From assembly GCA_028280455.1 (NCBI GenBank), contig JANQLT010000186.1:9559-73558 (forward strand): a DNA stretch of 64,000 bases, written 5' to 3'. The notes under the pieces were generated by a model, which was not told where the DNA came from, searched no databases, and saw nothing but the letters and a program-made list of their open reading frames with translations. The stretch is from Kiloniellales bacterium (GTDB taxonomy: Bacteria > Pseudomonadota > Alphaproteobacteria > Kiloniellales > JAKSDN01). Made by a program: the position numbers and the translations under genes. Below, piece by piece: positions 11,939 through 50,693 of this stretch. Within the stretch, counting starts at the first letter, position 1; each line of letters opens with the position of its first letter.

Positions 11939-11942
11939 GCCT

Positions 11943-27259: not shown

Positions 27260-27312
27260 CGTCTCCCGTTCTGCCTGTCCGACGATGCTACGCCGACCCG
27301 GCGGGCCGCAAC

Positions 27313-27326
27313 TTGACCCCGGTCAA
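27313..27326. promoter_or_regulatory. FNR/DNR-type box TTGACcccgGTCAA
   Basis: A perfect inverted repeat between the divergent fnr-like (ATG 27259) and trpD2-like (ATG 27387) genes. Confidence 0.6.
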
Positions 27327-27386
27327 GGCGGACTCGGCGCAGACTCGCTGGGATCTGAGCCGATAGAACAGTCTTGGACGGCCAGC

Positions 27387-32246: not shown

Positions 32247-32256
32247 GGGCGCGCTC

Positions 32257-33248: not shown

Positions 33249-33249
33249 G

Positions 33250-33768: not shown

Positions 33769-34289
33769 TGCAGCGGGAACCCCAGGTCCAGGCGATAGGA
33801 CTCGAGCAGCGGCAGGTCGAGCACCGTGAGACCCGTCTCGGTCTCGATCTCGGCCAGGGTCTGCTGCACCGCCGCCTGGTCCGGACCGGTCACGACGAAC
33901 CAGAGATTGAAGCGGTGCTCACGCTCGTAGTTGTGGTTGACCGCGTCGTTGCTGCTGACCAGGTCGGCGACGGCCTGCAGGCGCGGGAAGGGCACGGCCA
34001 TCGCGGCGAGGGTGCTCCAGCCGGTGCGCTGGGGCGCCACGATCGCCCCGATGCGCGACAGGGCGCGCAGCCCCTTGAGGCGCGAGAAGCGGCCGAGAAC
34101 ACTCTGCTCGCCGACACCGATCTCGCGGCCGATCTCGGCGTAGGGCCGCGGCACCAGCGGGAAATCGCGCTGGAAATCGTTGAGCAGACGGCGGTCCGCC
34201 TCATCGAACGCGAGGTCGGTCGCTGGCTCGTCGCCGGACTCCCCCTCGGGCCTGCGATCCTCGCTCAGGCTGGCGCCGGTCCGGCTCAT
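33759..34289 (-). CDS. nirD: NirD, sirohaem decarboxylase subunit
   Basis: ATG at 34289 in an ATGA overlap with the nirF stop. FPLVPRPYAEIG and HNYEREHRFNLWFV motifs. The rest of ORF ..35408 is an out-of-frame overlap of nirF. Confidence 0.85.
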   Translation of the reverse strand: MSRTGASLSEDRRPEGESGDEPATDLAFDEADRRLLNDFQRDFPLVPRPYAEIGREIGVGEQSVLGRFSRLKGLRALSRIGAIVAPQRTGWSTLAAMAVPFPRLQAVADLVSSNDAVNHNYEREHRFNLWFVVTGPDQAAVQQTLAEIETETGLTVLDLPLLESYRLDLGFPLQWT

Positions 34290-35476: not shown

Positions 35477-35789
35477 GCCCCTTCTTGAGTTGCCGGACCA
35501 GCCAGGCGGCCTCGCCGGGCCGGATCTCGAAGCGCCAGGGCGGCATCGGCGTGCCGGGCCGGCCGTCCAGGATGACTTCGACCAGCTCGTCGTCCGGGCG
35601 CTCGGCCAGTTGCGCCGGGAGCAGGGCCGGTCCGAGCCCGCCCTTGAAGGTCATGCCGTGGCAGGAGCCGCAGTCGTGCTTGAGGCGATGCAGCAGCTCC
35701 GCCTGCCGGTCGGGCCCGGGCGCCGACTCGGCCGCCAGGGCACCGCTCGCCGACGCGGCAAACAGAAGTGCTATCAGGCACTTAGGCAT
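35460..35789 (-). CDS. nirC: NirC, monohaem cytochrome c55X
   Basis: 109 aa with a signal peptide and a single CGSCH motif. Confidence 0.85.
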   Translation of the reverse strand: MPKCLIALLFAASASGALAAESAPGPDRQAELLHRLKHDCGSCHGMTFKGGLGPALLPAQLAERPDDELVEVILDGRPGTPMPPWRFEIRPGEAAWLVRQLKKGLGDDR

Positions 35790-36585
35790 AGCCGGCTTCC
35801 GCCTCGAGCATCGCCGGCCAGAAGTCGTTGGCCTCGGCGGTCTTGCGTAGGCGGTCGGAGATCGCCACCACGCGACCGATGATGATCAGGGTCGGCGAGG
35901 GCAGGCGCGCGGCGAGGACACGCTGCGGCAGGTCGGCGAGGGTCGCCCGGCAGAGCTCCTGACCCTCGGTGGTGCCCTTCGAGATCGCCATGGCCGGGGT
36001 CGAGCTCGGCAGGCCCTCGGCGATCAGCCGCCGGGCGATCTCCGGTAGCTGCGCCAGGCCCATGTAGACGACCAGCGTCGTGTCCGGGTCCGCGAGGCTT
36101 CGCCAGTTGAGGTCGAGAGGGCGGTCCTCGAGTCGATGGCCGGTGACGAAACGCACGCCGCTGGCGGCGGCGCGATGCGTCAGGGGGATGCCGGCAACGG
36201 CGGCACAGCCCGAGGCGGCCGTGATGCCCGGCACGATCTCGAAGCCGATGCCCTGGTTGATGAGATGCTCGCCCTCCTCGCAGCCGCGACCGAAGATCGT
36301 CGGGTCGCCGCCCTTGAGTCGCACGACGGTCTGGTGCACGCGGGCAAGCTGGACCAGCAGGTCGTTGATGTCGCTTTGCGGCACCGGGTGGCAGCCGCAT
36401 TCCTTGCCGACGAAGATGCGGCCCGTCCCCGCGGGTATCAGCTCGAGAATGCTGGTCGAGACCAGGCGGTCGTAGACCACCACGTCGGCTTCGCGAAGCA
36501 AGCGCAAGGCCTTGAGGGTCAGAAGCTCCGGGTCGCCTGGTCCGGCGCCCACGAGATAGACTTTGGACACGACCGGCTTCGTCAT
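35782..36585 (-). CDS. nirE: NirE/CobA, uroporphyrinogen-III C-methyltransferase
   Basis: ATG at 36585. SUMT motif VYLVGAGPGDPELLTLKALRLL. The upstream 66 codons of ORF ..36783 lie in the promoter region. Confidence 0.9.
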   Translation of the reverse strand: MTKPVVSKVYLVGAGPGDPELLTLKALRLLREADVVVYDRLVSTSILELIPAGTGRIFVGKECGCHPVPQSDINDLLVQLARVHQTVVRLKGGDPTIFGRGCEEGEHLINQGIGFEIVPGITAASGCAAVAGIPLTHRAAASGVRFVTGHRLEDRPLDLNWRSLADPDTTLVVYMGLAQLPEIARRLIAEGLPSSTPAMAISKGTTEGQELCRATLADLPQRVLAARLPSPTLIIIGRVVAISDRLRKTAEANDFWPAMLEAEAGYA

Positions 36586-36658
36586 TGAAGGGGCGACCTC
36601 CTGACCGGGCCAACTGTGGAACGTGATCGAGGCTAGCGAGGATCGGCTTCGCGCATCC

Positions 36659-36672
36659 TTGACCACAGTCAA
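36659..36672. promoter_or_regulatory. FNR/DNR-type box TTGACcacaGTCAA (nirE side)
   Basis: A perfect inverted repeat centred ~80 nt upstream of the nirE ATG. Confidence 0.6.
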
Positions 36673-36735
36673 GTCGGAGAGCAGAGAGCCAAGCTCGGGC
36701 GTCACTCTTTTTTGCGCGATCGCAGTGTCAAGCGC

Positions 36736-36749
36736 TTGACCGTCGTCAA
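36736..36749. promoter_or_regulatory. FNR/DNR-type box TTGACcgtcGTCAA (nirS side), preceded by an extra GTCAA half-site
   Basis: A perfect inverted repeat centred ~116 nt upstream of the nirS ATG. TCAAGCGCTTGA (36728..36739) forms a second overlapping palindrome. Confidence 0.6.
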
Positions 36750-36858
36750 GGCGAAGCCTGCGCGTTGCTCGAAGAATGCACACGGAAAATGGACCTGGGT
36801 CTGGGCCTGCCCCGAACCCACGGGGGGCTTCAGTCCGGTTTTCTGAGGAGGACGCACG

Positions 36859-38466
36859 ATGAGAATGCTAGCGCTCGGCGCTGCGGCGATTGCATTGGCC
36901 GCCGCTTCAATGATCGCCACGCCTTCGAGTTACGCCGAGGAGCCAACTCTGTCGGAGGAGGACTTCGAACGGGCCAAGCAGCTCTACTTCGAGCGCTGTG
37001 CGGGTTGTCACGGTGTCCTTCGCAAAGGCGCGACCGGCAAGGGCCTGCTGCCCAAGGAGACGCGGAAGCTCGGCCAGAAGCGGCTCGAGAAGATCATCAC
37101 CATCGGCACCGAAGGCGGCATGAACAACTTCGACGATATCTTCTCCAAGGAGGAGATCTCGCTGCTGTCCACCTACATCCAGATGGAGCCCCCGGCGCCG
37201 CCCGAGCTGAGCCTGGCCGAGATGAAGGAGCGGCATAAGGTCTTCATCCCGCCGGAGGACTATCCCAGCAAGCCGATGCACGACCGGAACTGGGAGAACT
37301 TCTTCCTGGTCATCCTCCGGGATGCCGGCAAGGTCGGCATCATCGACGGCGACACCAAGGAAGTCGTGGCCAAGGTCGATACCGGCTACGCCGTGCACGT
37401 CATGAAGGAGTCCTCGGACGGCCGCTTCTGGTACACCCAGGGCCGCGACGGCCGCATGACCAAGATCGATCTCTGGATGAACCCGCCGGCCGTCGTGGCG
37501 GAGGCCCAGGTCGCCTCGGACGCGCGCGACGTGGCGGTCTCCCACTACGGCGAATGGAAGGACAAGTACGTCATCGGCGGCGGCTACTGGCCTCCGCACT
37601 TCGTCATCCTCGATGCGGTGACCATGGAGCCGCTCAAGGTCGTCTCGACCCGCGGCATCAACGTCGACGGCGAGTACGTCAACGAGTCCCGCGTCGCGGC
37701 CATCTACAACACGCCGAACGCGCCGACCTGGGTCGTCGCGGTCAAGGAGCTGGGACAGCTTTGGCAGGTCGACTACAGCGATCTGGACAACCTGCGGATC
37801 GAGCAGGTCAACAGCCACAAGTTCCTGCATGACGGCTTCTTCGACCCCTCGCTGCGCTACTTCCAGATCGCGGCCAACGCCAGCAACCGCATCGAGATCC
37901 TGGACACGGTGGAGCGCAAGTTCGTCAAGTCGATCGAGACCGGCAAGAAGCCGCATCCGGGCCCCGGTGCCAACTGGAACGACGAGCAGTGCGGGCCGGT
38001 GGCCGGCACGCCCCATCTGGGCGAAGGCAAGGTGACCGTCTGGGGCAACGATCCCGAGGGCCATCCCGATCAGGCCTGGAAGATCTGCTACTCGGTCGAG
38101 ACCGACGGGCCCGGCCTCTTCATCCGCACCCACCCGAACTCGCCCTATGTCTTCGTCGACCAGACGAAGCACCCCGAGCCGGAGGTGCAGCAGGCCATCA
38201 AGGTCATCGACAAGAAGACCCGCAAGGTGGTCAAGACGATCCAGGTGACCGACACGCCGAACGCGGTCGCCGTCCACCAGGAATTCAACGCTGACGGTAC
38301 CGAGGTCTGGATCTCGGTCTGGGCCCGCGGCGGCAAGAAGGACTGGGAAAAGGGCGAGATCGTGATCTACGACTCGAAGACGCTCGAAGAGAAGGCCCGG
38401 ATCAAGGGTCTGGAGACTCCCACCGGCAAATTCAACGTCTACAACCGGATCAAGCACGTCACCTAA
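36859..38466 (+). CDS. nirS: Cytochrome cd1 nitrite reductase NirS
   Basis: RBS GAGGAGGA, signal peptide, haem c motif CAGCH, and a long d1 beta-propeller domain. Flanked by the nirECFDLGHJN operon. Confidence 0.95.
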   Translation: MRMLALGAAAIALAAASMIATPSSYAEEPTLSEEDFERAKQLYFERCAGCHGVLRKGATGKGLLPKETRKLGQKRLEKIITIGTEGGMNNFDDIFSKEEISLLSTYIQMEPPAPPELSLAEMKERHKVFIPPEDYPSKPMHDRNWENFFLVILRDAGKVGIIDGDTKEVVAKVDTGYAVHVMKESSDGRFWYTQGRDGRMTKIDLWMNPPAVVAEAQVASDARDVAVSHYGEWKDKYVIGGGYWPPHFVILDAVTMEPLKVVSTRGINVDGEYVNESRVAAIYNTPNAPTWVVAVKELGQLWQVDYSDLDNLRIEQVNSHKFLHDGFFDPSLRYFQIAANASNRIEILDTVERKFVKSIETGKKPHPGPGANWNDEQCGPVAGTPHLGEGKVTVWGNDPEGHPDQAWKICYSVETDGPGLFIRTHPNSPYVFVDQTKHPEPEVQQAIKVIDKKTRKVVKTIQVTDTPNAVAVHQEFNADGTEVWISVWARGGKKDWEKGEIVIYDSKTLEEKARIKGLETPTGKFNVYNRIKHVT

Positions 38467-38594: not shown

Positions 38595-40298
38595 ATGGCA
38601 AAGCTCAGAAACATGAAGATCCTTGGCGCCAGCCTGGTCGGTGCCGCCGTCATCTTCATCGGGGGCATCGTCGCCTGGGGCGGCTTCAACACCGCGATGG
38701 AGGCGACCAACACGACGGGGTTCTGCATCTCCTGTCACGAGATGTTCGACAACGTCTATCAAGAGTACAAGCAGACCATCCACTACGAGAATCGGACCGG
38801 CGTGCGCGCCTCCTGCTCCGACTGCCACGTTCCGGACCCCTGGGTCTGGAAGTTCGTGCGCAAGGTCAAGGCCACCAACGAGCTCTATCATTGGGCTCTC
38901 GGCACGATCGACACCAAGGAGAAGTTCGAGGCCAAGAGGCTGACGCTGGCCAAGCATGTCTGGCAGGACATGAAGGAGACCGACTCCCGGGAGTGCCGCA
39001 ACTGCCACTCCTGGGAAGGCATGCTGGAGACGAGCCAGAAGCGCCGGGCCTGGAAGCAGCACGAGCTGGCGCAGAGCGAGGGCCAGACCTGCATCGACTG
39101 CCACAAGGGCATCGCCCACCGCCCGGTGCATGTCCTGCTCGACGAGGAGGACGATCCCTACGACGGTCTCGCGGACAGCCGCAGCCTGCCGCTCGAGGTC
39201 GCGGCCGTCGAGGCGGCGGCGGTCACGAGCGATGCCGAAGCCGTCGCCGAGCCGGCGCCGGCCGAACAGGAAACCGCGACCAGCGAGCCGGCCCCGGCGC
39301 CCGAGACGGCGCCCGCGGCAACGCAGATCGCGGCCAGCGACGGCATCGACTGGTCCGCCATCGAAGGCCGCACGATCACGCTGCTCTATCCGGGCCAGTC
39401 GTCCATGGAGTGGGTGCTCAAGGGCAGCGACCATAGCGGCGCCCGAGCGATCAAGAAGGTCGGCGACCGCTGCGCCGAGTGCCACCAGGGCGAGGAGGCC
39501 GACATGGGCCAGCGAATCGTCACGGGCGAGAAGCTCGAGCCCCAGGTGATTCCCGGCAAGCGCGGCGCCATCGACGTCACTGCCAAGGCCGCGCATGACG
39601 CGGAGACGCTCTACCTCAACTTCACCTGGGCCCAGGCCGAGCATACGCCGGCACCCTTCGTCGAGGGCGGCAAGATGGACCCGGAGAACGAGGTGAAGCT
39701 GGCGGTCATGCTGATCCCCGAGGCTAACGAGCTCGCCACCCTGGCGGGCTGCTGGGCGACCTGCCACCACGATTCGCGCTACATGCCGGACCACCCGGAC
39801 TCGGCGGCGATCGCCGCCGCCGGCGATCTCATGCAGCGCCTGGAGGCCGACGACGGCGTGACCAAGTACCTGCAGGAGTCGCGCAGCGAGATCGAGGTCC
39901 GGGGCAGCGACGGCAAGCCGCGCGGCGGCTGGGACAAGCTCCTGCCGGCCGACCAGATCGACAGCCTGATGGCGGAGACCCAGTTCATCGACCTGGTCCG
40001 CTACAAGAGCGGTCCCGGTGCCCTTGAGAACGGCTACGTCTTCGAACGGCGTGTCGTCGATGGCGGCCAGCCCTTGTCCGGCAGCGGGGCGGTGGCGGAC
40101 GGCCAGTGGAGCGTCACGCTGGCTCTGCCTCTCGCGGCGACGGAAGCGGGCGACCTGGCCCTCGAAGCCGGCAAGACCTACACCCTCGGCGTCGCCATCC
40201 ACGACGATTTCACCACGGCGCGCTTCCACCACGTCTCCCTCGAGTACCGCCTCGGCTTCGACGATCCCGACGCCGAGATCAACGCGATCGGACAATGA
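38595..40298 (+). CDS. nirT: NapC/NirT tetrahaem quinol dehydrogenase fused via an Ala/Pro/Glu linker to a ~300-aa periplasmic haem domain
   Basis: N-terminal TM helix plus CISCH, CSDCH, CRNCH and CIDCH. Low-complexity linker (residues ~195-250). The C-terminal domain has CAECH and CWATCH. 567 aa. Confidence 0.85.
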   Translation: MAKLRNMKILGASLVGAAVIFIGGIVAWGGFNTAMEATNTTGFCISCHEMFDNVYQEYKQTIHYENRTGVRASCSDCHVPDPWVWKFVRKVKATNELYHWALGTIDTKEKFEAKRLTLAKHVWQDMKETDSRECRNCHSWEGMLETSQKRRAWKQHELAQSEGQTCIDCHKGIAHRPVHVLLDEEDDPYDGLADSRSLPLEVAAVEAAAVTSDAEAVAEPAPAEQETATSEPAPAPETAPAATQIAASDGIDWSAIEGRTITLLYPGQSSMEWVLKGSDHSGARAIKKVGDRCAECHQGEEADMGQRIVTGEKLEPQVIPGKRGAIDVTAKAAHDAETLYLNFTWAQAEHTPAPFVEGGKMDPENEVKLAVMLIPEANELATLAGCWATCHHDSRYMPDHPDSAAIAAAGDLMQRLEADDGVTKYLQESRSEIEVRGSDGKPRGGWDKLLPADQIDSLMAETQFIDLVRYKSGPGALENGYVFERRVVDGGQPLSGSGAVADGQWSVTLALPLAATEAGDLALEAGKTYTLGVAIHDDFTTARFHHVSLEYRLGFDDPDAEINAIGQ

Positions 40299-40738
40299 CG
40301 ATGACGAAGGCCGTGGCTAGAGCCGTCGCCGTCGGGGGGCTTGGGCTTGCCGCGCTCTTGCTTGCTTGGGTGTCGGTTTCCCAGGCCTCGTCGGATGCCG
40401 AGACCGAGAAGATCTGCGCCCAAGCGGAAGAGCGCTATCAGGCGCTCTTCGGGGATCAGCCGCCCGAGGCGGGCGTCGTCGTCGTTCTGATGTACAAGTA
40501 CACCTTCTGCCCGCCGGACCTGGAGGTAAAGGCCGGCACGACCCTGCGCTGGATCAACGTCGACAAGCGCACCAGCCACTCCGTCTGGTTCAAGGAAGAC
40601 GGCAAGCCCGAGTCTGACCGGCTCTTCCCGGAGGAGTTCGTCGACATGACGCTCGATGAGGCCGGCGCCTTCAACTACATCTGCGGCCCCCACGGCGATC
40701 AGGAAAAGATGCGCGGCAAGGTGACCGTGGTTCCTTAG
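40295..40738 (+). CDS. Small periplasmic cupredoxin (type-1 blue copper protein)
   Basis: ATGA overlap with the nirT-fusion stop. Signal peptide. Candidate ligands are His in RTSHSVWF and C-x2-H-x5-M in YICGPHGDQEKM. Confidence 0.72.
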   Translation: MTMTKAVARAVAVGGLGLAALLLAWVSVSQASSDAETEKICAQAEERYQALFGDQPPEAGVVVVLMYKYTFCPPDLEVKAGTTLRWINVDKRTSHSVWFKEDGKPESDRLFPEEFVDMTLDEAGAFNYICGPHGDQEKMRGKVTVVP

Positions 40739-40957: not shown

Positions 40958-41350
40958 CTAACCGAGATGCTTGTGAAGCCGCGAGTCCATGGTCTTGAAA
41001 TGGTCGCCGAACCAAGAGGTTAGCCGCTCCGCCAGGGCTTCTTCCTCGAAGGCGCCGCGGATCTCGTAGTCGTCCATGATCTCACGGATGTCGTCGAGCA
41101 AGCGCTCGTGGTCGGCCTTGTGCTCGGCGAACTGGTCGTAGCCTCGCTCGCGCATGATGCGCTCCTCCAGGGCGAAGTGCGCGACGATCTTAGCATAGAC
41201 CTCACCGAGGAACTCGGCGACCGACACCTCGACATCGGCCTTCATCAAATTGTCGTAGAGGCCGTTGATCAGCTCGATCATCTCGCGGTGCTCGTGGTCG
41301 ACGGCATCGACCCCGACGGCATAGTCCTTCTTCCATTGCAGCAGCGACAT
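40958..41350 (-). CDS. Bacteriohemerythrin
   Basis: 130 aa with di-iron ligand pattern VDHEH..., HFALEE...HKADHERL..., and WFGDHFKTMD. Confidence 0.85.
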   Translation of the reverse strand: MSLLQWKKDYAVGVDAVDHEHREMIELINGLYDNLMKADVEVSVAEFLGEVYAKIVAHFALEERIMRERGYDQFAEHKADHERLLDDIREIMDDYEIRGAFEEEALAERLTSWFGDHFKTMDSRLHKHLG

Positions 41351-41360: not shown

Positions 41361-41864
41361 TCACATGAAGACGAAGCCGCCCCGATCGGAACGGAAGTCG
41401 ATCACGAAGTTCTGGCGCTCGCGGAGCGCTATAGTCTCGCTTCTTTCATAGTCGAAGCCCTCGCTGCGCGCACTATCCCGCAGCCGGACCGTGATCCGAT
41501 GGGAGCCCGGCGCGACGACGAAGCGGCGATGGACCTGCGACGGCCCGTCGCCCGACAGGCCGCTCGGCGGCAGGGATTCGCGATAGAGCGGCTGGTCGTC
41601 GAGAGTCAGCTCGACCAGGACGGGCAGACGCTCCCGCGGGCAGATCTCCGGCCGGCGCATGTTCGGCGCCAGCTCGTCGAGCTCCTCGGCGGTGAGCTTG
41701 CGGCACTCTCCCTTGCGCTGGGCGCCGTGGGCGAAGCTCAGCATGATCTGCGCCTGGTCGGCCGGGAAGAAGGTGAAGCGCGGCCAATCCGAGAACAGGC
41801 CGAAGAGCAGCGCGATCACCAGATAGACCACCCCCTGGCCGAGGAACTGCAAGGGCCTAGGCAT
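41361..41864 (-). CDS. Membrane-anchored protein of unknown function (one N-terminal TM, two Cys)
   Basis: ATG at 41864 overlaps the upstream stop by 8 nt. FLGQGVVYLVIALLFGLF TM segment followed by a ~130-aa soluble domain. I recognised no family. Confidence 0.55.
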   Translation of the reverse strand: MPRPLQFLGQGVVYLVIALLFGLFSDWPRFTFFPADQAQIMLSFAHGAQRKGECRKLTAEELDELAPNMRRPEICPRERLPVLVELTLDDQPLYRESLPPSGLSGDGPSQVHRRFVVAPGSHRITVRLRDSARSEGFDYERSETIALRERQNFVIDFRSDRGGFVFM

Positions 41865-43449
41865 GGCTGCCGACCTCCTCCTCCTCGAGCCGCTTGCGAA
41901 CCGGCTCCGCCCCGGCGCTTGCCGCCTGGGGCGCCAGGCCGGCCTGGAAATCCTCGATAGCACTTGCGAGGTCGCTCAGCCCGTCCTCGGCGAGCCAAGC
42001 CTGGCCGATTCTCTCGCGCGGCACGCGGCGACGCAGGGCGGGATCCCTTTCGCCCGCCAGCCGTTCCTCCATCCAGGCGACGCCGAAGCGGTGATAGCAG
42101 TCGCCCTCGTGGCAGCCGGCCAAGAACACGCCGGCGGCGAAGCCGCGGCTCAAGGCGTAGTCGATGTAGGAGGGCGGCAAGGCGGCGATGCAGGGCAGGG
42201 CCACGCTGGCCACGTTGGGCAGGTCGAGGCGTTCGAGCTTGGGGCCATGGGCGCAGCCGAAGACGACGACCCCCGACTCGCCGTCGAGGCCCGACGTGGC
42301 GGCTTCCAGGTCCTCTCGAAGGGCGCGCGCCGAGGCCTGCGGCAGCTCGATGCCCGGGATCAGCTCGCTTCGACGCCGGAAGGGCGTGGCGGTCGGACAG
42401 GCGCCCATGCAGATCCCGCAGCTCGTGCAGAGGTCGCTGTCGACCCGGGCCTCGAGGTCGAAGGCCATGCCGTCAGAGCGCGGCACCATCGCGATGGCGT
42501 TGTAGGGGCAGTCGTCCGCGCAGCGCTGGCAGCCGTTGCAGTTGCCGAGATCGACCACCGCGGTGTTGGCCGTGGCTTCAGCTTTGCGCATCGGCGGCAG
42601 CCAGGGCAGGGCGGCGAGCAAGAGGGTCAGGGCCACGGCGAAGCCCCAGACGGCGGCATCGGACAGCCTTTCCATCAAGGGATAGAAGCCCAGGTAGAAC
42701 CAGTCGAGACCCAGCTCGCCGGGTACCGCGGCGAGGTCCGCCGGGCCCTGACTGACGGCCGGCTTCCAGAAGGAGAGCGCCAACAGCATCGCCAGGGTGC
42801 CCACGGCCAGGCCGCGCTTGGGATTGATCTGCGGCCGACTGACCCGCTGCAGGTGAATCCAGAGCACCAGGAGCAGGAGCAGGGGCACGACGATGTGGAT
42901 GAAGATCAGCAGCGTGAAGAAGCGGTCGTCCAGGGCGCTCGCCGTGTTGAAGTTGCGGGCGATCGGCTCGCCGAAGATGCCGAGCCAATCGAGCCAGTCC
43001 GCGGTTTCCAGGGCGATGTACTGCGCCAGTTGATCCCAGACCAGCCAATAGCCCGAGATCCCGGCGATCATGACCAGCCAGAGCACGGGCACGCCCGTGA
43101 ACCAGGTGAACCAGCGCGGCCCGCGGTAGCGGCCCAGGGAGAACTCGCGAAGGACATGGACCACCATCATCAGGACCATGCCGTCGGAGGCATAGCGATG
43201 CAGGCTGCGCATGACGCCGCCGAGATACCACTGCTCGACGGTCATGAACTCGACCGACTCGTAGGCTTCGGTCGTCCCGGTGTCGAACAGGACGTAGACG
43301 TAGATTCCGCTGACCGCGACGACCCAGTAGTAGAAGAAACCGAGAGCGCCAAGCTGGTGCAGCGGATTCCAGCCTGCCGGAAAGACGGCATCCAGCCAGC
43401 GCTCGAGGTGCAGGAAGCACCATCGAAGGGGACGTCGCAGATCGATCAA
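41857..43449 (-). CDS. Fusion protein: di-haem cytochrome b (bc1 b-type N-terminal domain) :: 2x[4Fe-4S] ferredoxin :: MvhD/FlpD-like domain
   Basis: Two H-x13-H pairs in TM helices (HRYASDGMVLMMVVH; HIVVPLLLLLVLWIH). CNGCQRCADDCP and CTSCGICMGACP. VVVFGCAHG...LPC...FLAGCHEGDCYH. Confidence 0.8.
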   Translation of the reverse strand: MIDLRRPLRWCFLHLERWLDAVFPAGWNPLHQLGALGFFYYWVVAVSGIYVYVLFDTGTTEAYESVEFMTVEQWYLGGVMRSLHRYASDGMVLMMVVHVLREFSLGRYRGPRWFTWFTGVPVLWLVMIAGISGYWLVWDQLAQYIALETADWLDWLGIFGEPIARNFNTASALDDRFFTLLIFIHIVVPLLLLLVLWIHLQRVSRPQINPKRGLAVGTLAMLLALSFWKPAVSQGPADLAAVPGELGLDWFYLGFYPLMERLSDAAVWGFAVALTLLLAALPWLPPMRKAEATANTAVVDLGNCNGCQRCADDCPYNAIAMVPRSDGMAFDLEARVDSDLCTSCGICMGACPTATPFRRRSELIPGIELPQASARALREDLEAATSGLDGESGVVVFGCAHGPKLERLDLPNVASVALPCIAALPPSYIDYALSRGFAAGVFLAGCHEGDCYHRFGVAWMEERLAGERDPALRRRVPRERIGQAWLAEDGLSDLASAIEDFQAGLAPQAASAGAEPVRKRLEEEEVGSHA

Positions 43450-43503: not shown

Positions 43504-44364
43504 CTAGCGGATCTCGGACGCGCGTGGCGGCGTGCGGCTCCCGCGCTCGCGCGACCGCGCGGCGAGCAAGGCGCGAAGCAGGAGAATCGCGACTCCGAGC
43601 AGGCTCAAGCCGCCGATCGTGATGGCGAAGAAGAAGGAGTAGTCGAAGCTGTAGCGTTCGCGGGCCGGGTCGTAGAACGTACAGAAGAGGCGGACCCGCT
43701 CTATCAGCGCCTCCACGTCCACCAGGCTTCCGGCCTGACCGAACATCAGGCTCTTTAGCGGCTCGACCAAGGCCGGCGGGTCGAAGCTGGCGCCATAGAC
43801 CTGTTGGTGAACCAGCCCGTCGGAACTGAGGACGCTGGTCTGAGCCAGGTGATCGAAGCCCCTGGGCGAGGGAAAGTAGAGAAAGCCCAGCTCCTCGAGG
43901 AGCTTGTCCAAGTCGACGCCGGTGCCGCTGAGGAAATGCCAGTTGTCGAAATCGATGCCCTGGCTGCTTGCATAGTGATGCATGCGCTCGGGCGTGTCCT
44001 GGGCGGAGTCGAAGCCGATCGTCACGACGGAGAAGCTGTTCTCGCCGAGCGCCTCGATGGCGACGTCGACCGCGTGCTGCAGCGTCTGCACGATGATCGG
44101 ACAGGACTCGACGCAGGCGGTGAACACCAGGTTGACCACCAGGGGCTTGCCGCGGAAGTCGGAAAGCCGCCGCGCCTCGCCGCTCTTGTCCAGGAAGCTG
44201 TAGTCGCCGACCTCGCGGCCCACGGCGGCTTGACTGTAGGCGATGGCGGCGCCGGGATCGAACACCGAGGGCTGAGAGGTCTTGGCGGCCAGCGGCGTCG
44301 CGGCCAGGCCGACCGTGCCTGCGATGCAGACGATCGCCAGCCAAAGCAGGGAAGGGCGAGGCAT
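43504..44364 (-). CDS. SCO1/SenC-like thioredoxin-fold protein with variant CVESCP motif and a C-terminal TM anchor
   Basis: ATG at 44364. Signal/anchor MPRPSLLWLAIVCIAG. FTACVESCP in place of the canonical CPDVCP. C-terminal hydrophobic FFFAITIGGLSLLGVAILLL. Confidence 0.72.
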   Translation of the reverse strand: MPRPSLLWLAIVCIAGTVGLAATPLAAKTSQPSVFDPGAAIAYSQAAVGREVGDYSFLDKSGEARRLSDFRGKPLVVNLVFTACVESCPIIVQTLQHAVDVAIEALGENSFSVVTIGFDSAQDTPERMHHYASSQGIDFDNWHFLSGTGVDLDKLLEELGFLYFPSPRGFDHLAQTSVLSSDGLVHQQVYGASFDPPALVEPLKSLMFGQAGSLVDVEALIERVRLFCTFYDPARERYSFDYSFFFAITIGGLSLLGVAILLLRALLAARSRERGSRTPPRASEIR

Positions 44365-44368: not shown

Positions 44369-45235
44369 CTAGGCGAGCAGGGCGCGATCGAGGATCGCCG
44401 CCAAGAGCAGGAGTCCGAGCTGCAGCAAGGAAGCCTTGAAGTTGGCCATGGCCGCCAAGGGCCCGGGCCGCAAGACCAGCTTGATCGAGGCGAGAATGAA
44501 CCAGGCCCCTCCGGATATGGCACCGGCCAGGTAGATCCAGCCCAGCCCGTAGGCGGCCGGCAAGAGGGAGAGCAGCACGAGCGCCACGGTATGCCCGAGG
44601 ATGATCTTGGCGGCGAGGGCGTCGCCGACGACGACGGGCAGCATCGGCACGCCGGCCTTGGCGTAGTCCTTGTGCATCACCGTCGCCAGGCTCCAGAAGT
44701 GCGGCGGCGTCCAGAGGAACAGGACCACGGCCAGAATCAGCGGCGCCGGGGCCGGGTTCGGATCCACGGCGGAGGCCCCGGCGAGGACCGCGAAGCTGCC
44801 GGCCAGGCCGCCCAGGACGATGTTCAACCAGGTCCTGGTCTTGAGCCAGACGGTGTAGACGACGCCGTAGACGAAGGCGCCGAGGAAGACGTGCAGGGCG
44901 ACGTAGATGTTGAGGGCGAAGGCGGCCATGGCCACGGAGAGGAACAGCACCAGGAGAATCGCCGACAGCCACAAGGGCCCCGCCTGGTATTCGCCGGTGG
45001 CGAAGGGACGGCGCTTGGTCCGCAGCATCCGCGCATCGAGGTCGCGCTCGACGTACTGATTGAGAGCCCCGGCGCTGGCCGCCGAGAGCAGCACCGCCAG
45101 CGCCAGCAGGACGACCTGCCAGGCTTCGGGCTGCGGGCCGGGCGTCACCGCCAGGCCCGCCAGGGCGCAGAGCATGATCGCAAAGCCGATGCGCATCTTG
45201 AAGACCGACCAGAGTTGCCCGACCGTTGCGCCCAT
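44369..45235 (-). CDS. ctaB: Protohaem IX farnesyltransferase (haem O synthase)
   Basis: UbiA-type polytopic protein with NQYVERDLDARMLRTKRRP (NxxxDxxxD-like motif). 288 aa. Confidence 0.9.
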   Translation of the reverse strand: MGATVGQLWSVFKMRIGFAIMLCALAGLAVTPGPQPEAWQVVLLALAVLLSAASAGALNQYVERDLDARMLRTKRRPFATGEYQAGPLWLSAILLVLFLSVAMAAFALNIYVALHVFLGAFVYGVVYTVWLKTRTWLNIVLGGLAGSFAVLAGASAVDPNPAPAPLILAVVLFLWTPPHFWSLATVMHKDYAKAGVPMLPVVVGDALAAKIILGHTVALVLLSLLPAAYGLGWIYLAGAISGGAWFILASIKLVLRPGPLAAMANFKASLLQLGLLLLAAILDRALLA

Positions 45236-45277: not shown

Positions 45278-46999
45278 CTAGCTGAGCGGCCAGACTTCGG
45301 AGAGGAACTTCCAGTTGATGAAGTAGTAGAGGACGAAAGCGGTGAAGAAGACCGCCACCAGGGTGATCGTGCCCGGCAGCTTGAGGGTCCCCTCGCTGCC
45401 GTAGGTCGAGACGGCCTCGCCGCCGGCGACGATCGGGTTGGCCTTGACCGCCTCGGCGTCACGGCGCTTGCCGAACAGGATCGAGCCGACGATCACCAGG
45501 ATGTACATCAGGCCGCCGACGCCGGCGAGCAGGCCGAAGATGCCGTTCAGGCCGAGCATCAGGAACGCGGTGCCGGGAACGTCGAAGGTCAAGGAGGCAT
45601 CGCTGAAGGTGATGTCCCAGTGACGCCGCGAGATGCCGAGCGTGCCGGCGCCCATCATGAAGAGCGAGGTGCCGCCGACGCCGATGGCGAAGACGTAGGG
45701 TTGCCACTTCGCGATGGTCTTGAACACGAGATCGCGTTGGAAGATCAGAGGCACGACGAGGTAGGAGATCGCCATGAAGGCCAGCGTGGTGCCGGCGACG
45801 ACCGTGGCGTGGAAGTGGCCCGGCACGTAGAGCGTGTTGTGCATCAGGATGTTGATCTGCTCTGTGCCGAGCACGACGCCCGAGATGCCGCCCAGGAAGC
45901 CGAACAGCACGACCGACAGGGCGAAGCCGGAGAAGGCCGGGTTGCCCCAAGGGGCCTGGCGCAGCCAGCCGAAGATGCCCTTGGTGAAGCCGCGCCGCCG
46001 CTGTGCCGCTTCCACCGCGCCCGGAATGCTCATGCCGTGGATCAGGCTGCCGAGCACCGCCAGGTAGAGCGCGTAGCTGGTGTTGAAGACCTTCCACTCC
46101 GAGCTGATGCCGGGCTCGACCAGCATGTGGTGAGCGCAGGCGAGCTGCAGGAACAGGATGTAGAGCAGAAAGGCCGTGCGGCTGACCTTCTCCGACAGCG
46201 GCTTGGCGCCCAGGACCAGGGCGGCGATGCAATACCAGACCGCGACATGGGCCGAGACGTTGATCTGCTGCGAGGAATGACCCATGCCCCACCAAACCAG
46301 CTTGTAGGTCACGGTATCGATCTCGGCGATGTAGCCGATCGACCAGAGGAAGGTCGGGATCAGGATGATCGCGCCGGAGGCGATGGTGAAGACGGCGATG
46401 ATGGCCGCCGTGATCGCGCCGAAGGTGACCAGGGGCACCGAGCCCTCGTAGGTCTGCTCCTCCTTGGCGATGACCAGCGTGCCGAAGAACACGCAACAGG
46501 CCAGGAGCGCGCCGACGGCGAAGAGTATCAGGCCGAGATAGAAGTGCGGTGCGGCCTGCATCGGCACGTAGGAGGTGAACATGACGCTCGATTCGCCCTG
46601 CAGCACCGCGACGGTCGCCAGCAGCGAGCCGCCGACCATCAGCAGGAAGCCGAGCCAGGCGAAATGCGGCGTCGCCAGGCGGCAATTGAGCAGGATCGAC
46701 GAGGCGAAGTAGAGGATCGCGACCTCGAAGAAGATGATCCAGAACAGCAAGACGGCCGCGCCGTGTGCGGTCAGCACCAGGTAGAACAGGTCCGCCGGGA
46801 GCAGATGCACGCCCGGCCAGCGCGTCAGCGCCACCAGCACGCCGAAGAGGCCGCCGACGGCGAGAAACAGCACGGCCGCGACGGCGTTCACCTTTATGAG
46901 GGTCTCGGTCTTGGCGTAGACCTTGAGGCCCGTGTCCAGGCAGGTCCTGTACTTTTCGTCATGCCCTACCAGAGCACCTTCTGCCGTGCTGACACTCAT
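45278..46999 (-). CDS. Haem-copper oxidase superfamily subunit I, B-family-like, lacking the helix-VI cross-link Tyr
   Basis: All six His ligands are present (LTAHG; WWGMGH; CAHHM; PGHFHA), but the motif reads GHSSQQ where A/B-type oxidases have GHPxVY. 573 aa. Confidence 0.9.
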   Translation of the reverse strand: MSVSTAEGALVGHDEKYRTCLDTGLKVYAKTETLIKVNAVAAVLFLAVGGLFGVLVALTRWPGVHLLPADLFYLVLTAHGAAVLLFWIIFFEVAILYFASSILLNCRLATPHFAWLGFLLMVGGSLLATVAVLQGESSVMFTSYVPMQAAPHFYLGLILFAVGALLACCVFFGTLVIAKEEQTYEGSVPLVTFGAITAAIIAVFTIASGAIILIPTFLWSIGYIAEIDTVTYKLVWWGMGHSSQQINVSAHVAVWYCIAALVLGAKPLSEKVSRTAFLLYILFLQLACAHHMLVEPGISSEWKVFNTSYALYLAVLGSLIHGMSIPGAVEAAQRRRGFTKGIFGWLRQAPWGNPAFSGFALSVVLFGFLGGISGVVLGTEQINILMHNTLYVPGHFHATVVAGTTLAFMAISYLVVPLIFQRDLVFKTIAKWQPYVFAIGVGGTSLFMMGAGTLGISRRHWDITFSDASLTFDVPGTAFLMLGLNGIFGLLAGVGGLMYILVIVGSILFGKRRDAEAVKANPIVAGGEAVSTYGSEGTLKLPGTITLVAVFFTAFVLYYFINWKFLSEVWPLS

Positions 47000-47011
47000 G
47001 GCTTGTCCCCG

Positions 47012-47551
47012 TTATTCCACGACGTAAATCTTGCCGAGCATCTGATGATGTCCGATGCCACAGAACTCGTTGCAGACGATGCCGAACTCGCCGGTCTCGT
47101 TGGGCGTCAGCGTGACCACCATCTCGTAGTTCGGGTGAACCTGCAGGTTGATGTTGGTCGGCTGCAGCGAGAAGCCGTGCTGCCAGTCCAAGGAGGAGAG
47201 ATGCAGCCGGTAGCTCTGGTCCTTCTCGAGCTCGAGGATCGGCCACCACTCCCAGAGCCGCGCGATGAGATAGACGTCGCTGCCCGGCGGCGGGCGGACG
47301 ACCGGGATCCCGGTGTCTCCCTCTTCGCGGACCGTATAGGCCTCGGCCATTTCCTCCGTCTTTTCGGCGAAGGCGTCGGGCGTGATCCGGTAGGCCTCGT
47401 TGGAGAGGTTCTGCTCCCCGGTGATGTGCCAGTAGATCATCGTCGAGAACATCACCAAGCCCCAGAGGAAGGCGATGGTGATCCAGATGATCTCCATCCG
47501 GTGGAGCGGCTCTTTCCACCAGAGCTTGTTTTCCGGAGGTGTGATAGCCAT
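47012..47551 (-). CDS. Haem-copper oxidase subunit II with a single TM helix and an intact CuA site
   Basis: H-x34-CNEFCGIGHHQM fits the CuA consensus H-x34-CxExCx3Hx2M. 179 aa, ba3-like short form. Confidence 0.88.
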   Translation of the reverse strand: MAITPPENKLWWKEPLHRMEIIWITIAFLWGLVMFSTMIYWHITGEQNLSNEAYRITPDAFAEKTEEMAEAYTVREEGDTGIPVVRPPPGSDVYLIARLWEWWPILELEKDQSYRLHLSSLDWQHGFSLQPTNINLQVHPNYEMVVTLTPNETGEFGIVCNEFCGIGHHQMLGKIYVVE

Positions 47552-47563
47552 GTCAGACGCTCT

Positions 47564-47767
47564 CTATTGCGGCGCGATCGGGATCTGGGCTAGCTCCATG
47601 ATTCCCCAGATGATGTAGAAGACCGTCGGCATCGTGACGCCGAGGAACAAGAGCAGGAACGGGTTGTCGAGCAGGCGCTGCATGGCGGGCACACGCTCGC
47701 TCGGGTCCTTGCCTGCAGCGCTCTTCGTCGGTTCGGACGGCGCCGAAGGTGGTGCTTGGTCGGACAT
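47564..47767 (-). CDS. Small single-TM protein (possible ba3 subunit IIa analogue)
   Basis: A 67-codon ORF with one TM (FLLLFLGVTMPTVFYIIWGI), 12 nt upstream of subunit II. The gene order small-II-I mirrors cbaDBA. The true start may be the internal Met. Confidence 0.5.
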   Translation of the reverse strand: MSDQAPPSAPSEPTKSAAGKDPSERVPAMQRLLDNPFLLLFLGVTMPTVFYIIWGIMELAQIPIAPQ

Positions 47768-47933: not shown

Positions 47934-48620
47934 CTAGCGGTCGAGTCGGCCACGGACGTCCGCCAGCAAGGCGGCCGGCTCCAGGTCCGGGTGGTAGTAG
48001 GACAGAACCCCGCCCTCGGGGCCGAGCAGGTAGAGATAGGCGCTGTGATTCATCAGGTAGTCCTCCGAGTCCTCCCCGACTTTCTCGAAGAAGACCCGAA
48101 AGCTGCTCGTCGCCGCTTTCAGGCTTTGCGCGTCGCCCGTCAGTCCATGGAGACGTGAATGGAAGGCCTCGACATAGCCCGACAGGACCTCGGGCGTATC
48201 GCGGGCGGGATCGACGGTGATGAAGGCGCCCCTTGCGGTCACGCCCTCGCGCTCCAGGTCGTCGAGCAGATCGGCCAGGTGGGACAGGACCGTCGGGCAG
48301 ACGTCCGGGCAGCTCGTGTATCCGAACACGACCAGCAGGGGAGCGCCTTGGAAATCGCCGAGGCGCGCCGGCTGCCCCTTGTGGTCGACGAGATCGAAGT
48401 CGACGTCCAGGCCGATGCCGTTGCCGATCGCGGCATCGGCGACGCGGCCGAGCGGCCCGTCGGCTTCCGGCCTCAGCAGCAGCCACGTCGATGCAACGGC
48501 CAGCGCGATCAACAGCGTGATCGCGAGCGGCCGCAGAACGACGATCGGCAGACCGCGTTTGGTTCCACCCGTCGAGGGCGTCGCCGCCTCGGCCGCTTGG
48601 CTGACTCGCCTGTCACTCAT
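47934..48620 (-). CDS. senC: SCO1/SenC copper chaperone (canonical CPDVCP)
   Basis: N-terminal TM anchor, and GYTSCPDVCP with a downstream His in MNHSAYLYL. ATG at 48620 is preferred over the TTG at 48650. Confidence 0.85.
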   Translation of the reverse strand: MSDRRVSQAAEAATPSTGGTKRGLPIVVLRPLAITLLIALAVASTWLLLRPEADGPLGRVADAAIGNGIGLDVDFDLVDHKGQPARLGDFQGAPLLVVFGYTSCPDVCPTVLSHLADLLDDLEREGVTARGAFITVDPARDTPEVLSGYVEAFHSRLHGLTGDAQSLKAATSSFRVFFEKVGEDSEDYLMNHSAYLYLLGPEGGVLSYYHPDLEPAALLADVRGRLDR

Positions 48621-48721
48621 CGCGCGAAGGCCTCGAAAGAAGACCCTCAAGCAGACCGTAAGGGCGAGTCTGCTACCTTGACCGCGATCAAGCGTCGGCC
48701 GCCGGGCGAGTCGCTTGCAAA

Positions 48722-48823: not shown

Positions 48824-49558
48824 ATGCAGGTGACCCAGACTGATCGATTCGTACATAGAACGGGGATTCTGGAGCGGGACTTCGAGGTCCTCGCTAGCCT
48901 GCCCCTCTTCTCCAGTATGTCGCGTAGCGGGCTCGAGCACATGCTCGTCGATGCGTGGGTGCACGACATCGAGCGCGGCCATGTCTTGTTCATCCAGGGC
49001 GAGCCGGCCGAGCGCTTCTACGTTGTCTTCGACGGCTGGGTGAAGCTGTTCCGCGAGACGATCTCCGGAGACGAAAGCGTGATCGCGGTCTTCACGACCG
49101 GCGAGTCCTTCGCGGAAGCCGCCATGTTCGACAAGGCGGACTACCCCGTCAGCGCGATGACGGTGGAAGACTCGCGCCTGCTGGTTGTGCCCTCCAGCAC
49201 CTTCATCAACAGGCTTCGTGAGCACAGCGACTATGCCCTCGACATGATGGCGTCGATGTCACGCCATCTGCGTACGCTCGTTCGGCAGATCGAGCAGCTT
49301 TCCGCGAAGTCATCGACCCAGCGGGTCGCCGGTTTCCTGGTGCGCCTCTGTCCGGCGGACGCCCATTCGGCGGTCGTCAGCCTGCCGATCGAGAAGTCCT
49401 TGATCGCCGGCCGGCTGGGCATGCAACCGGAGACCTTTTCGCGATCGCTGAAGAAGCTGCAGGGCCTCGGCGTCAACAATTCGCGCAACGAGGTGGAGAT
49501 CCACGATGTGGTCGCCCTGCGCGAGTACAGCGAAGGCAACCAGCGAATTCGTGCCTGA
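48824..49558 (+). CDS. Crp/Fnr-family regulator without a Cys cluster (NnrR/DNR/NNR-like, candidate NO-responsive activator)
   Basis: cNMP-type beta-roll, no N-terminal Cys motif, and a recognition helix with E--SR (GMQPETFSRSLKKL). Confidence 0.82.
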   Translation: MQVTQTDRFVHRTGILERDFEVLASLPLFSSMSRSGLEHMLVDAWVHDIERGHVLFIQGEPAERFYVVFDGWVKLFRETISGDESVIAVFTTGESFAEAAMFDKADYPVSAMTVEDSRLLVVPSSTFINRLREHSDYALDMMASMSRHLRTLVRQIEQLSAKSSTQRVAGFLVRLCPADAHSAVVSLPIEKSLIAGRLGMQPETFSRSLKKLQGLGVNNSRNEVEIHDVVALREYSEGNQRIRA

Positions 49559-49615: not shown

Positions 49616-50161
49616 CTACTCCGGGTAAGGAACGCGGCGCCGTAGCGCCATGGACCGACCGAAGGCCTCGCAGTCGTCGGCGCCCAAGCGATCGCGGGCA
49701 AGCGGTAGCAGGCGCTCGTTCTCCAATCGAACATGCTGCCGCTTGGCCTCGGCGAAGGTGGCGACCGCGGGCCCGATGTCGTCGGGAGCGCTGCCGGCCT
49801 CATAGAAGGACAACGCCGCTTCCGTCCTCTCCAGCAAGACGGCGTTGCTGCCGTGCTCTTGCTCCAGGGTCTCGATGAGGCTCTCGACTCGGTCGCTCGG
49901 CGGAAAGCAGGCGGCGAGGCGGTGAAAGAGATCCTCTTCGTCGGCGATGTGCAACGGCAGATCGGCCCTCAAGTAGGCCAGCGCTATGTTGGCGCTGGCG
50001 AAAGAGGCGTCGCTCCGCGGATCGACGACGAGGCTGTCCAGGAGATCGCAAACCCTGAGTATGCGTCGATGATCCGCTTGCAGATAGTCGATCGGCCGTC
50101 GAAAGAGGTTCTCGGGCAAGGGATTGATCAATCCCGAACCGGCTCGTTCCACTGAAGGCAT
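49616..50161 (-). CDS. Hemerythrin/HHE cation-binding domain protein (NorA/DnrN-like di-iron protein)
   Basis: PIDYLQADHRRIL, LPLHIADEEDLF and LEQEHG motifs. The start at 50161 was chosen because the FNR-type box at 50228 would otherwise sit too close to the ATG at 50197. Confidence 0.68.
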   Translation of the reverse strand: MPSVERAGSGLINPLPENLFRRPIDYLQADHRRILRVCDLLDSLVVDPRSDASFASANIALAYLRADLPLHIADEEDLFHRLAACFPPSDRVESLIETLEQEHGSNAVLLERTEAALSFYEAGSAPDDIGPAVATFAEAKRQHVRLENERLLPLARDRLGADDCEAFGRSMALRRRVPYPE

Positions 50162-50227
50162 CCGAGTAGTCACGACGCATCCGTCCTCAACCGCCATTGA
50201 TGTTTGTTGGGGTCGAAGCTCGGCGCC

Positions 50228-50241
50228 TTGACAGTTGTCAA
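50228..50241. promoter_or_regulatory. FNR/DNR-type box TTGACagttGTCAA
   Basis: A perfect inverted repeat centred ~73 nt upstream of the ATG at 50161. It overlaps the stop of the convergently unrelated maoC-like gene upstream. Confidence 0.55.
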
Positions 50242-50693
50242 TTGCCTTCACGCGAGGTGGATTGGCGAATGCCAACGAGGCCGGTCGTGACGAGCTCTCC
50301 CGTGGCCTGCCTCTTGACCTCGAGACTGCAGAACACGGCCCTCGGCTCGGTCTTGATGACGGAAGAGACCTCGCCGAGCACGATGTAGTCGTCGCCCACG
50401 GGGGCGACCTTGCTGTTCCGGAATTTCAGGCTGGAGATTTCCGTGCCGGGCCGAAAGGCACGGGAGACAGCCTCGATGCACCAGTTTCCGATCAGGAAGC
50501 CGGGTACGATGATGCCCGGAATGCCCTGCTCGGCGGTGAAACTCCGGTCGTAGTGAAAGCGGTGGAAGTTCCGAATGGCGGCGCAAAAGCGCACGACGTC
50601 GACTTCATTGGGACGCTTCTCGAGCGTCGCCAGCCTGTCGCCCACGCGTGTCGTCGCGAAGGCCAGAGCGTTCTCAGAATAGTATTTGCTCAT
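50238..50693 (-). CDS. MaoC-like (R)-hydratase hot-dog subunit
   Basis: ATG at 50693. FCAAIRNFHRFHYD (hydratase-2-type motif context). 151 aa. Confidence 0.78.
   Translation of the reverse strand: MSKYYSENALAFATTRVGDRLATLEKRPNEVDVVRFCAAIRNFHRFHYDRSFTAEQGIPGIIVPGFLIGNWCIEAVSRAFRPGTEISSLKFRNSKVAPVGDDYIVLGEVSSVIKTEPRAVFCSLEVKRQATGELVTTGLVGIRQSTSREGN

Follow-up and report, generated by a model that had tools for sequence, protein, structure and literature searches.

The 64,000-nt stretch of a Kiloniellales bacterium genome analysed here (contig JANQLT010000186.1; the whole stretch is called the window below) carries, next to the nirS gene for cytochrome cd1 nitrite reductase, an eight-gene minus-strand operon that encodes a two-subunit haem-copper enzyme. 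The enzyme belongs to eNOR, a previously described family of nitric oxide (NO) reductases of which it is a typical representative, and the locus very probably (probability about 0.85) encodes an eNOR-family NO reductase serving the neighbouring nitrite reductase. The initial annotation, made from the DNA letters, had proposed a candidate NO reductase derived from B-family oxidases and lacking their cross-link Tyr. This proposal was supported by the presence of Gln245 at the Tyr position, by the six His ligands, by the CuA site and by the clade in which the protein falls, and on this sequence evidence it could be narrowed to eNOR.

The eNOR family goes back to Hemp & Gennis (2008) and was validated biochemically by Murali et al. 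(2024; PMC11214002) with the Rhodothermus marinus enzyme Rmar_0161, which forms N2O from NO at a rate of 0.68 per s and shows no O2 reduction. Named members of the family come from Ca. Accumulibacter, from Gallionellaceae KS / Ferrigenium and from haloarchaea. Expression of eNOR under denitrifying conditions has been reported for Accumulibacter (PMC11214002) and for Gallionellaceae KS / Ferrigenium (2026 preprint).

Active-site residues and CuA domain

All six canonical His ligands described initially were found in subunit I, namely H79 (in LTAHG), H241 (WWGMGH), H290 and H291 (CAHHM), and H395 and H397 (PGHFHA). They aligned to the ligands of the ba3 oxidase of Thermus thermophilus and were invariant across 84 clade sequences. 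The helix VI motif reads GHSSQQ, as had been pointed out, where O2 reductases have GHPxVY. In an ungapped HMMER alignment, Gln245 fell on the cross-link residue Tyr237 of ba3, and the register of this alignment was fixed by two anchors, H241 on H233 and Y256 on Y248. Gln occupied the Tyr237 position in 84/84 clade members, in which Q244 and N247 were invariant as well, and GH-x-x-Q-Q was present in all 81 related loci that were compared (from at least 570 loci in the genome scan, the best 80 entered the comparison, and all neighbourhood counts given below refer to these 81).

The position of the cbb3-type Tyr, six residues before the HH pair of helix VII, is taken by an invariant Leu284. None of the conserved Tyr residues (73, 97, 144, 154, 184, 232, 256, 280, 309, 312, 391, 558 and 559) mapped to a known cross-link position, as judged by homology mapping onto ba3 and the cbb3-type Tyr position, and two of them, Y256 and Y280, occur also in relatives that retain the cross-link Tyr. 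An AF2 model of subunit I (pTM 0.74, pLDDT 66.7) had its best structural matches among ba3-type oxidases (TM-score 0.73-0.75). No eNOR structure was found among the PDB entries by sequence and structure matching.

Subunit II has one hydrophobic segment and the CuA signature H-x34-CNEFCGIGHHQM, in agreement with its first description as the short form with a single transmembrane (TM) helix and an intact CuA site. The ligand pattern is H-x34-C-x-E-x-C-x3-H-x2-M; the protein aligned to the ba3 CuA domain with an E-value of 1e-14, and the complete motif was present in 80 of the 81 loci. Residues resembling the K proton channel of ba3 were also conserved. The counterparts in subunit I, S318 (ba3 S309), H321 (T312), S/T324 (T315) and Y256 (Y248), were retained in 83-84 of 84 sequences, and Glu20, at the start of the subunit II TM helix and presumably the equivalent of ba3 E15, in 80 of 82.

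Family assignment and phylogeny

Relatives of subunit I were searched among 1.84 billion representative proteins, and the full-length matches fell into three groups. The first, with GH-x-x-Q-Q, comprised the window protein, P0121 (52% identity) and a Natrarchaeobius protein (40%); the second, with GH-[ST]-x-Q-Y, consisted of archaeal proteins that retain the Tyr (41-45%); and the third, with GHPxVY, was of the ba3 type (about 30%). In a distance-based neighbour-joining tree (200 bootstraps; R. marinus eNOR not included), a Gln clade with 100% bootstrap united the window protein, ten proteobacterial loci including that of Accumulibacter (L081), P0121 and the haloarchaeal P0128. The B-family representatives with GHPxVY formed a separate clade, also with 100% bootstrap, and the Tyr-retaining archaeal proteins branched between the two. 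This phylogenetic placement had been suggested together with the original proposal, and subunit I was not nested among O2-reducing enzymes with an alternative Tyr.

The window protein was 64-65% identical to the Accumulibacter enzymes, which are classed as eNOR (PMC11214002). In the scheme of Hemp & Gennis (2008), eNOR is defined by Gln replacing the cross-link Tyr (PMC8756737, Table A4 and Methods), and sNOR and bNOR have Asn at this position (PMC8756737, Table A4). In gNOR, one active-site His is replaced by Asp and subunit II lacks the CuA ligands (PMC11214002). Among eNOR, sNOR and gNOR, the first was chosen because Gln at the Tyr position is combined with an intact CuA site and all the CuB-type His residues. 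Among the Tyr-less clades that the initial annotation had named, eNOR fits, but the norSY-senC-orf1 clusters to which it had also likened the operon belong to sNOR, a different family.

Four other assignments were rejected. The residue is Gln245 and not Asn, which rules out sNOR and bNOR, and gNOR was ruled out by the presence of the three metal-site His and all the CuA ligands. A B-family O2 reductase of the ba3 type was discarded on account of GHSSQQ in place of GHPxVY and of the separate B-family clade. The cNOR and qNOR enzymes are C-family kin that have cytochrome c as a subunit or as a fused domain and Glu ligands to FeB; they were dismissed on best matches to the B family, a CuA-type partner subunit and the lack of a NorC-like CxxCH protein in the window.

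The Tyr-retaining archaeal proteins P0129, P0130 (from a metagenome-assembled genome (MAG) of Hodarchaeales), P0133 (Thermoproteota MAG) and P0148 have the motif GH[ST]xQY[IV]N and are 41-45% identical to the window protein. They share Gln244 and Asn247 with eNOR, yet retain the cross-link Tyr. They may represent an oxidase-like sister group, and eNOR may have arisen from such proteins by a Tyr-to-Gln change. A further set of haem-copper-like proteins, P0185 (Dehalococcoidia MAG), P0191, P0207, P0265 and P0268, has Tyr in place of two canonical His residues, namely the first His of the HH pair in helix VII and, in helix X, the ligand of the high-spin haem; its helix VI motif is F-H-x-x-H-Y.

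Operon structure and distribution

The eight genes of the operon are separated by gaps of -8 to 54 nt and are listed with the other features of the window in Table 1. The small single-TM ORF that had been placed ahead of subunit II, in a cbaDBA-like order, was found in most of the related loci, and its product had no match in Pfam or NCBIfam. The gene for orf167 overlaps the upstream cytochrome b/Fe-S fusion gene by 8 nt. The Sco-like protein has 286 aa when counted from an internal ATG, and an identical 286-aa gene call is present in L085. The 286-, 530-, 167- and 130-aa products match recorded gene calls on identical short Logan contigs.

Table 1. Features of the window (positions in nt of the 64,000-nt stretch; aa, amino acids; TM, transmembrane; the last column gives the number of loci carrying the gene among the 81 compared)
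Feature	Position	Strand	Evidence or remark	Loci
Small TM protein (67 aa, single TM)	47564-47767	-	Position corresponds to ba3 subunit IIa (cbaD)	76
Putative eNOR subunit II (179 aa; one TM helix and CuA cupredoxin domain)	47012-47551	-	CuA motif	81
Putative eNOR subunit I (573 aa; haem-copper superfamily catalytic subunit)	45278-46999	-	Pfam COX1, E 3e-63	81
Haem O synthase (CtaB/CyoE family prenyltransferase)	44369-45235	-	TIGR01473, 252 bits (cut-off 210)	69
Sco/SenC-like protein, membrane-anchored, thioredoxin-fold, CVESC motif	43504-44364	-	Pfam SCO1-SenC, E 2e-15	75
530-aa fusion of di-haem cytochrome b, 2x[4Fe-4S] ferredoxin and FlpD/MvhD-like domain	41857-43449	-	Profile matches, motifs	72
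orf167 (167 aa; N-terminal TM helix and beta-sandwich, two invariant Cys)	41361-41864	-	AF2 model	71
Bacteriohemerythrin (130 aa), last operon gene	40958-41350	-	NF033749, 95.8 bits (cut-off 84)	64
FNR/Dnr/NnrR-type box TTGACGAAAGTCAA	47858-47871		About 97 bp upstream of the ATG of the small ORF	
SCO1/SenC copper chaperone, canonical (CPDVC)	47934-48650	-	Pfam SCO1-SenC, E 2e-45; immediately upstream of the operon	
Crp/Fnr-family regulator	48824-49558	+	Pfam cNMP_binding and HTH_Crp_2	
Hemerythrin HHE-domain protein	49616-50275	-	Pfam Hemerythrin, E 8e-16; perfect box 50228-50241	
nirS, cytochrome cd1 nitrite reductase	36859-38466	+	Pfam Cytochrom_D1, E 6e-118	
Haem d1 genes nirE, nirC, nirF, nirD/L/G/H, nirJ, nirN and CbiX-like chelatase	28765-36783	-	Divergent from nirS	
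NapC/NirT tetrahaem quinol dehydrogenase-EB_dh-like fusion	38595-40298	+	Downstream of nirS	
Small cupredoxin	40295-40738	+	Directly after the NirT-like fusion	

The eight operon genes are real, constrained genes. The G+C content at third codon positions (GC3) was 0.84-0.93 across all eight, and comparison with five relatives gave a ratio of nonsynonymous to synonymous substitution rates (dN/dS) of 0.04-0.5, which is indicative of purifying selection on every gene, including that of the 67-aa small TM protein (0.04-0.34). A GC3 of 0.93, dN/dS values of 0.06-0.24 and the fact that the sequence is conserved across hundreds of genomes ruled out a pseudogene or chance ORF. An exact-sequence look-up of subunit I returned no identical record; a relative with 96% identity, from locus L001, was used in its place, together with short Logan contigs that are identical for the accessory genes. 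A promoter and terminator scan of the operon gave no more sites than were obtained with shuffled sequence.

Relatives of the enzyme are encoded in at least 570 species-level genomes. The best 80 loci were 63-84% identical and belonged to Alpha-, Beta- and Gammaproteobacteria, with one Bacteroidota MAG. The order of the eight genes was syntenic in most of the 81 loci, and most of the missing genes fell at contig ends. In 23 of the loci nir genes were present within 10 kb, and in 25 a Crp/Fnr gene lay beside the operon. Rarer neighbours were NosR/NirI-like genes (17 loci), ApbE (16), NnrS (12), cytochrome c (7) and COX15/CtaA (6). In the deeper lineage of P0121 (L083/L084), nirS is again next to the operon, and a second, very divergent COX1-like gene of 497 aa with a weak Pfam match is located between nirS and the eNOR genes (5844-7337).

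Regulation

A perfect TTGAC-N4-GTCAA box had been reported to precede the operon, with the same half-sites as at nirS and nirE, and was recovered as TTGACGAAAGTCAA (Table 1). Five perfect boxes and one with a single mismatch were present in the window, versus 0.76 expected by chance. Two of the perfect ones lie in the nirE-nirS intergenic region upstream of nirS (36659-36672 and 36736-36749) and the others precede the eNOR operon, the hemerythrin-domain gene and a YbiB-like gene; the one-mismatch box (48678-48691) belongs to the upstream SCO1 gene. Among 78 related loci, 49 had a perfect TTGAY-N4-RTCAA box in the 260 bp preceding the operon, with a background of 0.021 per 259 bp.

The Crp/Fnr-family regulator encoded close to the operon is a candidate Dnr/NnrR-like reader of these boxes, because the Cys cluster found at the N-terminus of FNR is missing and the recognition helix reads E-x-x-S-R. 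A Dnr/NnrR/FNR-type regulator acting at TTGAC-N4-GTCAA probably switches on the operon and would thereby induce it together with nirS.

Proposed function and alternative explanations

The proposed eNOR would consist of two subunits plus a third, small TM protein and would descend from B-family (ba3-like) oxidases. It would remove the NO coming from the neighbouring NirS (2 NO + 2 e- + 2 H+ -> N2O + H2O), and the assignment would fill the NO-to-N2O step beside a complete cluster for nirS and haem d1. Electrons would enter at CuA of subunit II from a periplasmic carrier, possibly the adjacent cupredoxin or a cytochrome c, which may in turn receive them from bc1 or the NirT-like quinol dehydrogenase. 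The next acceptor after CuA would be the low-spin haem (H79/H397), from which the electrons would reach the high-spin haem (H395) and the metal site formed by the three His residues H241, H290 and H291. With Gln245 in the place of the redox-active Tyr of the cross-link, the site is expected, by analogy with the family, to supply two electrons for NO and not four for O2. A K-channel-like line from Glu20 of subunit II through S/T324, H321, S318 and Y256 to Q245 could bring in the substrate protons from the cytoplasmic side, which would render NO reduction electrogenic. In that case, to which the channel residues point, denitrification would conserve more energy with eNOR than with cNOR.

The haem O synthase and the two Sco proteins would serve the synthesis of a prenylated haem and the assembly of the copper centres. 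The initial annotation had noted the synthase within the operon and had deduced a farnesylated haem from it. The gene itself was upheld, with a TIGR01473 score above the curated cut-off, but the haem is probably not plain haem O, as the haem in the characterised eNORs, that of R. marinus among them, is haem As, which is formylated and bears a hydroxyethylgeranylgeranyl side chain (PMC11214002). Since characterised eNORs carry haem As, a haem A synthase outside the window is implied and would be supplied from elsewhere in the genome. No CtaA (haem A synthase) was found in the window by family scans of the ORFs.

As had been stated at the outset, there is no norC/norB in the window; the coding-like ORFs of NorB length were scanned, with the exception of two ORFs flanked by ABC-transporter genes, and belonged to other families, the ORFs outside the family scan being a few short or transporter-flanked ones. 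The CxxCH motifs of the window were confined to nirN, nirC, nirS and the NirT-like gene, with no NorC-like CxxCH protein, and a tblastn search with subunit I revealed no second haem-copper paralogue in the window.

Several points weigh against the assignment. The NO reductase activity, the cofactors and the expression of the window protein are predicted from its sequence and by analogy, and the tie to R. marinus Rmar_0161 runs through the diagnostic residue, the clade and the naming of Accumulibacter and haloarchaeal members in the literature. The confidence of the subunit I model is moderate (pLDDT 66.7). The operon includes an O2-binding bacteriohemerythrin. FNR-type boxes also drive high-affinity oxidases, so that the box cannot separate an NO signal from a low-O2 signal. 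Finally, the window covers 64 kb of the genome, and a cNOR or qNOR encoded elsewhere may carry most of the flux.

The enzyme could be an NO reductase of auxiliary or conditional use, needed in microoxic growth or for detoxification, with a cNOR or qNOR elsewhere performing most of the respiratory NO reduction. This explanation, which is compatible with eNOR membership and disputes only the role as 'the' partner of NirS, is possible but rather unlikely. The operon lies directly beside nirS and has the regulatory box in common with it, the linkage to nir genes recurs (23/81 loci), and eNOR is the sole NO reductase reported for R. marinus (PMC11214002) and Ferrigenium (2026 preprint). On the other side, many organisms carry NO reductases of several families (PMC11214002), the R. 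marinus eNOR needed microoxic conditions because haem A synthesis requires O2 (PMC11214002), and the 64-kb view includes no haem A synthase.

A divergent B-family terminal oxidase reducing O2 at low tension without a His-Tyr cofactor would be in keeping with ba3-type oxidases as the closest solved structures, with the K-channel-like residue set, and with the bacteriohemerythrin and haem O synthase of the operon. FNR-type boxes are typical of microaerobic oxidase operons. Such an oxidase is nevertheless very improbable: an invariant Gln stands at the Tyr position in 84/84 sequences and the cbb3-type position has no Tyr, the Tyr-retaining relatives lie on separate branches, and the characterised members of the family do not reduce O2 (PMC11214002; title of Tanimura & Fukumori 2000). 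Other nitrogen-oxide chemistry, either the dismutation of NO to N2 and O2 or the reduction of N2O, is hardly credible. Although other Tyr-less haem-copper families have been proposed as NO dismutases or N2O reductases, these are kin to qNOR/cNOR and not to the B family (PMC11214002). The bacteriohemerythrin could in principle handle O2, but an intact CuA site for electron entry favours a reductase over a dismutase, and the R. marinus eNOR yields N2O from NO (PMC11214002).

Conserved accessory genes

With eNOR as the preferred assignment, further interest is limited to the conserved accessory genes and to the misannotation of these enzymes. In the survey, bacterial eNOR operons as a rule included the cytochrome b/Fe-S fusion, and a bacteriohemerythrin was usually their last gene. 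In the 2026 Ferrigenium preprint, the usual operon is given as eNOR subunits II and I, haem O synthase, sco1 and a 'scaffold' gene, and the cytochrome b/Fe-S genes are termed unusual. The survey adds to the description of the family the eight-gene architecture as the bacterial rule, the conserved FNR/Dnr-type box and the rare linkage of a haem A synthase.

The fusion protein contains two H-x13-H pairs and two further TM segments. It is present also in the deeper eNOR lineage (L083/L084), in which the operon adjoins nirS and nap. In L083, a single protein of 715 aa (10713-12860) corresponds to the fusion over residues 47-510 (E 6e-83) and to orf167 in its C-terminal part (residues 566-706, E 8e-22). 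The cytochrome b/Fe-S/MvhD fusion and orf167 are thus predicted to form one functional unit. The module of fusion and orf167 was absent from one haloarchaeal eNOR locus. For orf167 there was no sequence match in Pfam or the PDB, and its AF2 model (pLDDT 85) gave only generic beta-sandwich matches with TM-scores of at most 0.37.

It is conceivable, although improbable, that the tail of the operon (fusion, orf167 and bacteriohemerythrin) is a dedicated redox or maturation module. In one version, a quinol-linked reductase could keep the hemerythrin reduced, whereby trace O2 would be captured and delivered to the haem A synthase. Another possibility is that the module deals with iron or NO on behalf of the catalytic site. 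The source of O2-dependent haem A under anoxia was posed as a question in the 2026 Ferrigenium preprint, and the O2-delivery version, if true, would answer how denitrifiers make the O2-dependent haem a of eNOR near anoxia. CtaA/COX15 was adjacent to the operon in 6 loci, 4 of them without the hemerythrin; the inverse relation is weak, and phylogeny confounds it. The pattern of hemerythrin and CtaA may bear on haem a synthesis at very low O2.

Seven homologues (P0004, P0010, P0037, P0059, P0087, P0092 and P0112) were systematically misannotated in their records, and such misannotation hides NO reductases in genome surveys of denitrification.

Comparison with known enzymes

The window operon has in common with the eNOR family the Gln, the six His residues, a CuA subunit II and K-channel-like residues including the S309 counterpart, as well as the haem O synthase and Sco genes within the operon and the association with nirS. 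It differs in that no CtaA is present in the operon or nearby; many eNOR operons are said to have one (PMC11214002), but it was adjacent in only 6 of the 81 loci. The low-spin haem is ligated by His/His in the window protein, whereas a His/Lys variant has been reported for some eNORs.

A counterpart among studied proteins is the 'cytochrome a1-like haemoprotein' of Magnetospirillum magnetotacticum (Tamegai et al. 1993; Tanimura & Fukumori 2000), which is now counted as an eNOR and is described as devoid of cytochrome c oxidase activity (PMC11214002). Like the window enzyme, it is an alphaproteobacterial two-subunit haem-copper protein. Its genes are reportedly arranged mcaII-mcaI-hosA (subunit II, subunit I, haem O synthase), the same order as in the window operon. 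Since the best 80 loci did not include that of Magnetospirillum, its enzyme must be less than about 63% identical to the window protein. The neighbourhood in M. magneticum AMB-1, unlike that of the window operon, has ctaA as well as ctaB.

The best sequence match in the PDB was the ba3 oxidase of T. thermophilus (cbaDBA; PDB 1EHK and 1XME), with an E-value of 1e-39 and about 25% identity. The likeness to ba3 extends to the fold (TM-score 0.73-0.75), the gene order of small TM protein, subunit II and subunit I, the single-TM CuA subunit II and the counterparts of Y248 and S309. In subunit I of the window, Y237 of ba3 is replaced by Gln245 and Y244 by Val, and the changes V236 to Gln244, W239 to Asn247 and T312 to His321 concern positions that are all invariant in the eNOR clade. 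The ba3 enzyme is an O2 reductase, in contrast to the eNOR assignment of the window enzyme. The sNOR (norSY-senC-orf1 of ammonia oxidisers) and bNOR (qCuANOR) enzymes are also Tyr-less, contain CuA, derive from the B type and have Sco/SenC in the cluster; NO reduction has been proposed for sNOR and shown for bNOR. The S309 counterpart is missing from sNOR (PMC11214002), whereas the window protein keeps the Ser and has Gln, not Asn.

Other genes in the window

The EB_dh-like (ethylbenzene-dehydrogenase-like) domain of the NirT-like fusion downstream of nirS carries a fifth CxxCH motif. The pair of fusion and cupredoxin also follows nirS in four related loci (L001, L002, L009 and L076). Both proteins are candidates for delivering electrons to NirS as well as to CuA of eNOR, and together they may constitute a bc1-independent electron route to the two enzymes.

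A YbiB/TrpD2-like gene (27228-28460, plus strand), annotated as a 'glycosyl transferase family protein', scored above the cut-off of NF006564 and has a perfect TTGAC-N4-GTCAA box (27313-27326) before its likely true start. Similar genes were found near cbiX-nirN or the eNOR operon in L005, L028, L029, L030 and L035. The remaining coding-like ORFs that were scanned in the window encode transporters, hydantoinases, regulators and fatty-acid enzymes. Among them are two pairs of hydantoinase/oxoprolinase A and B genes (6431-10803 and 20008-23878, plus strand), each located by transporter genes and unrelated to eNOR.

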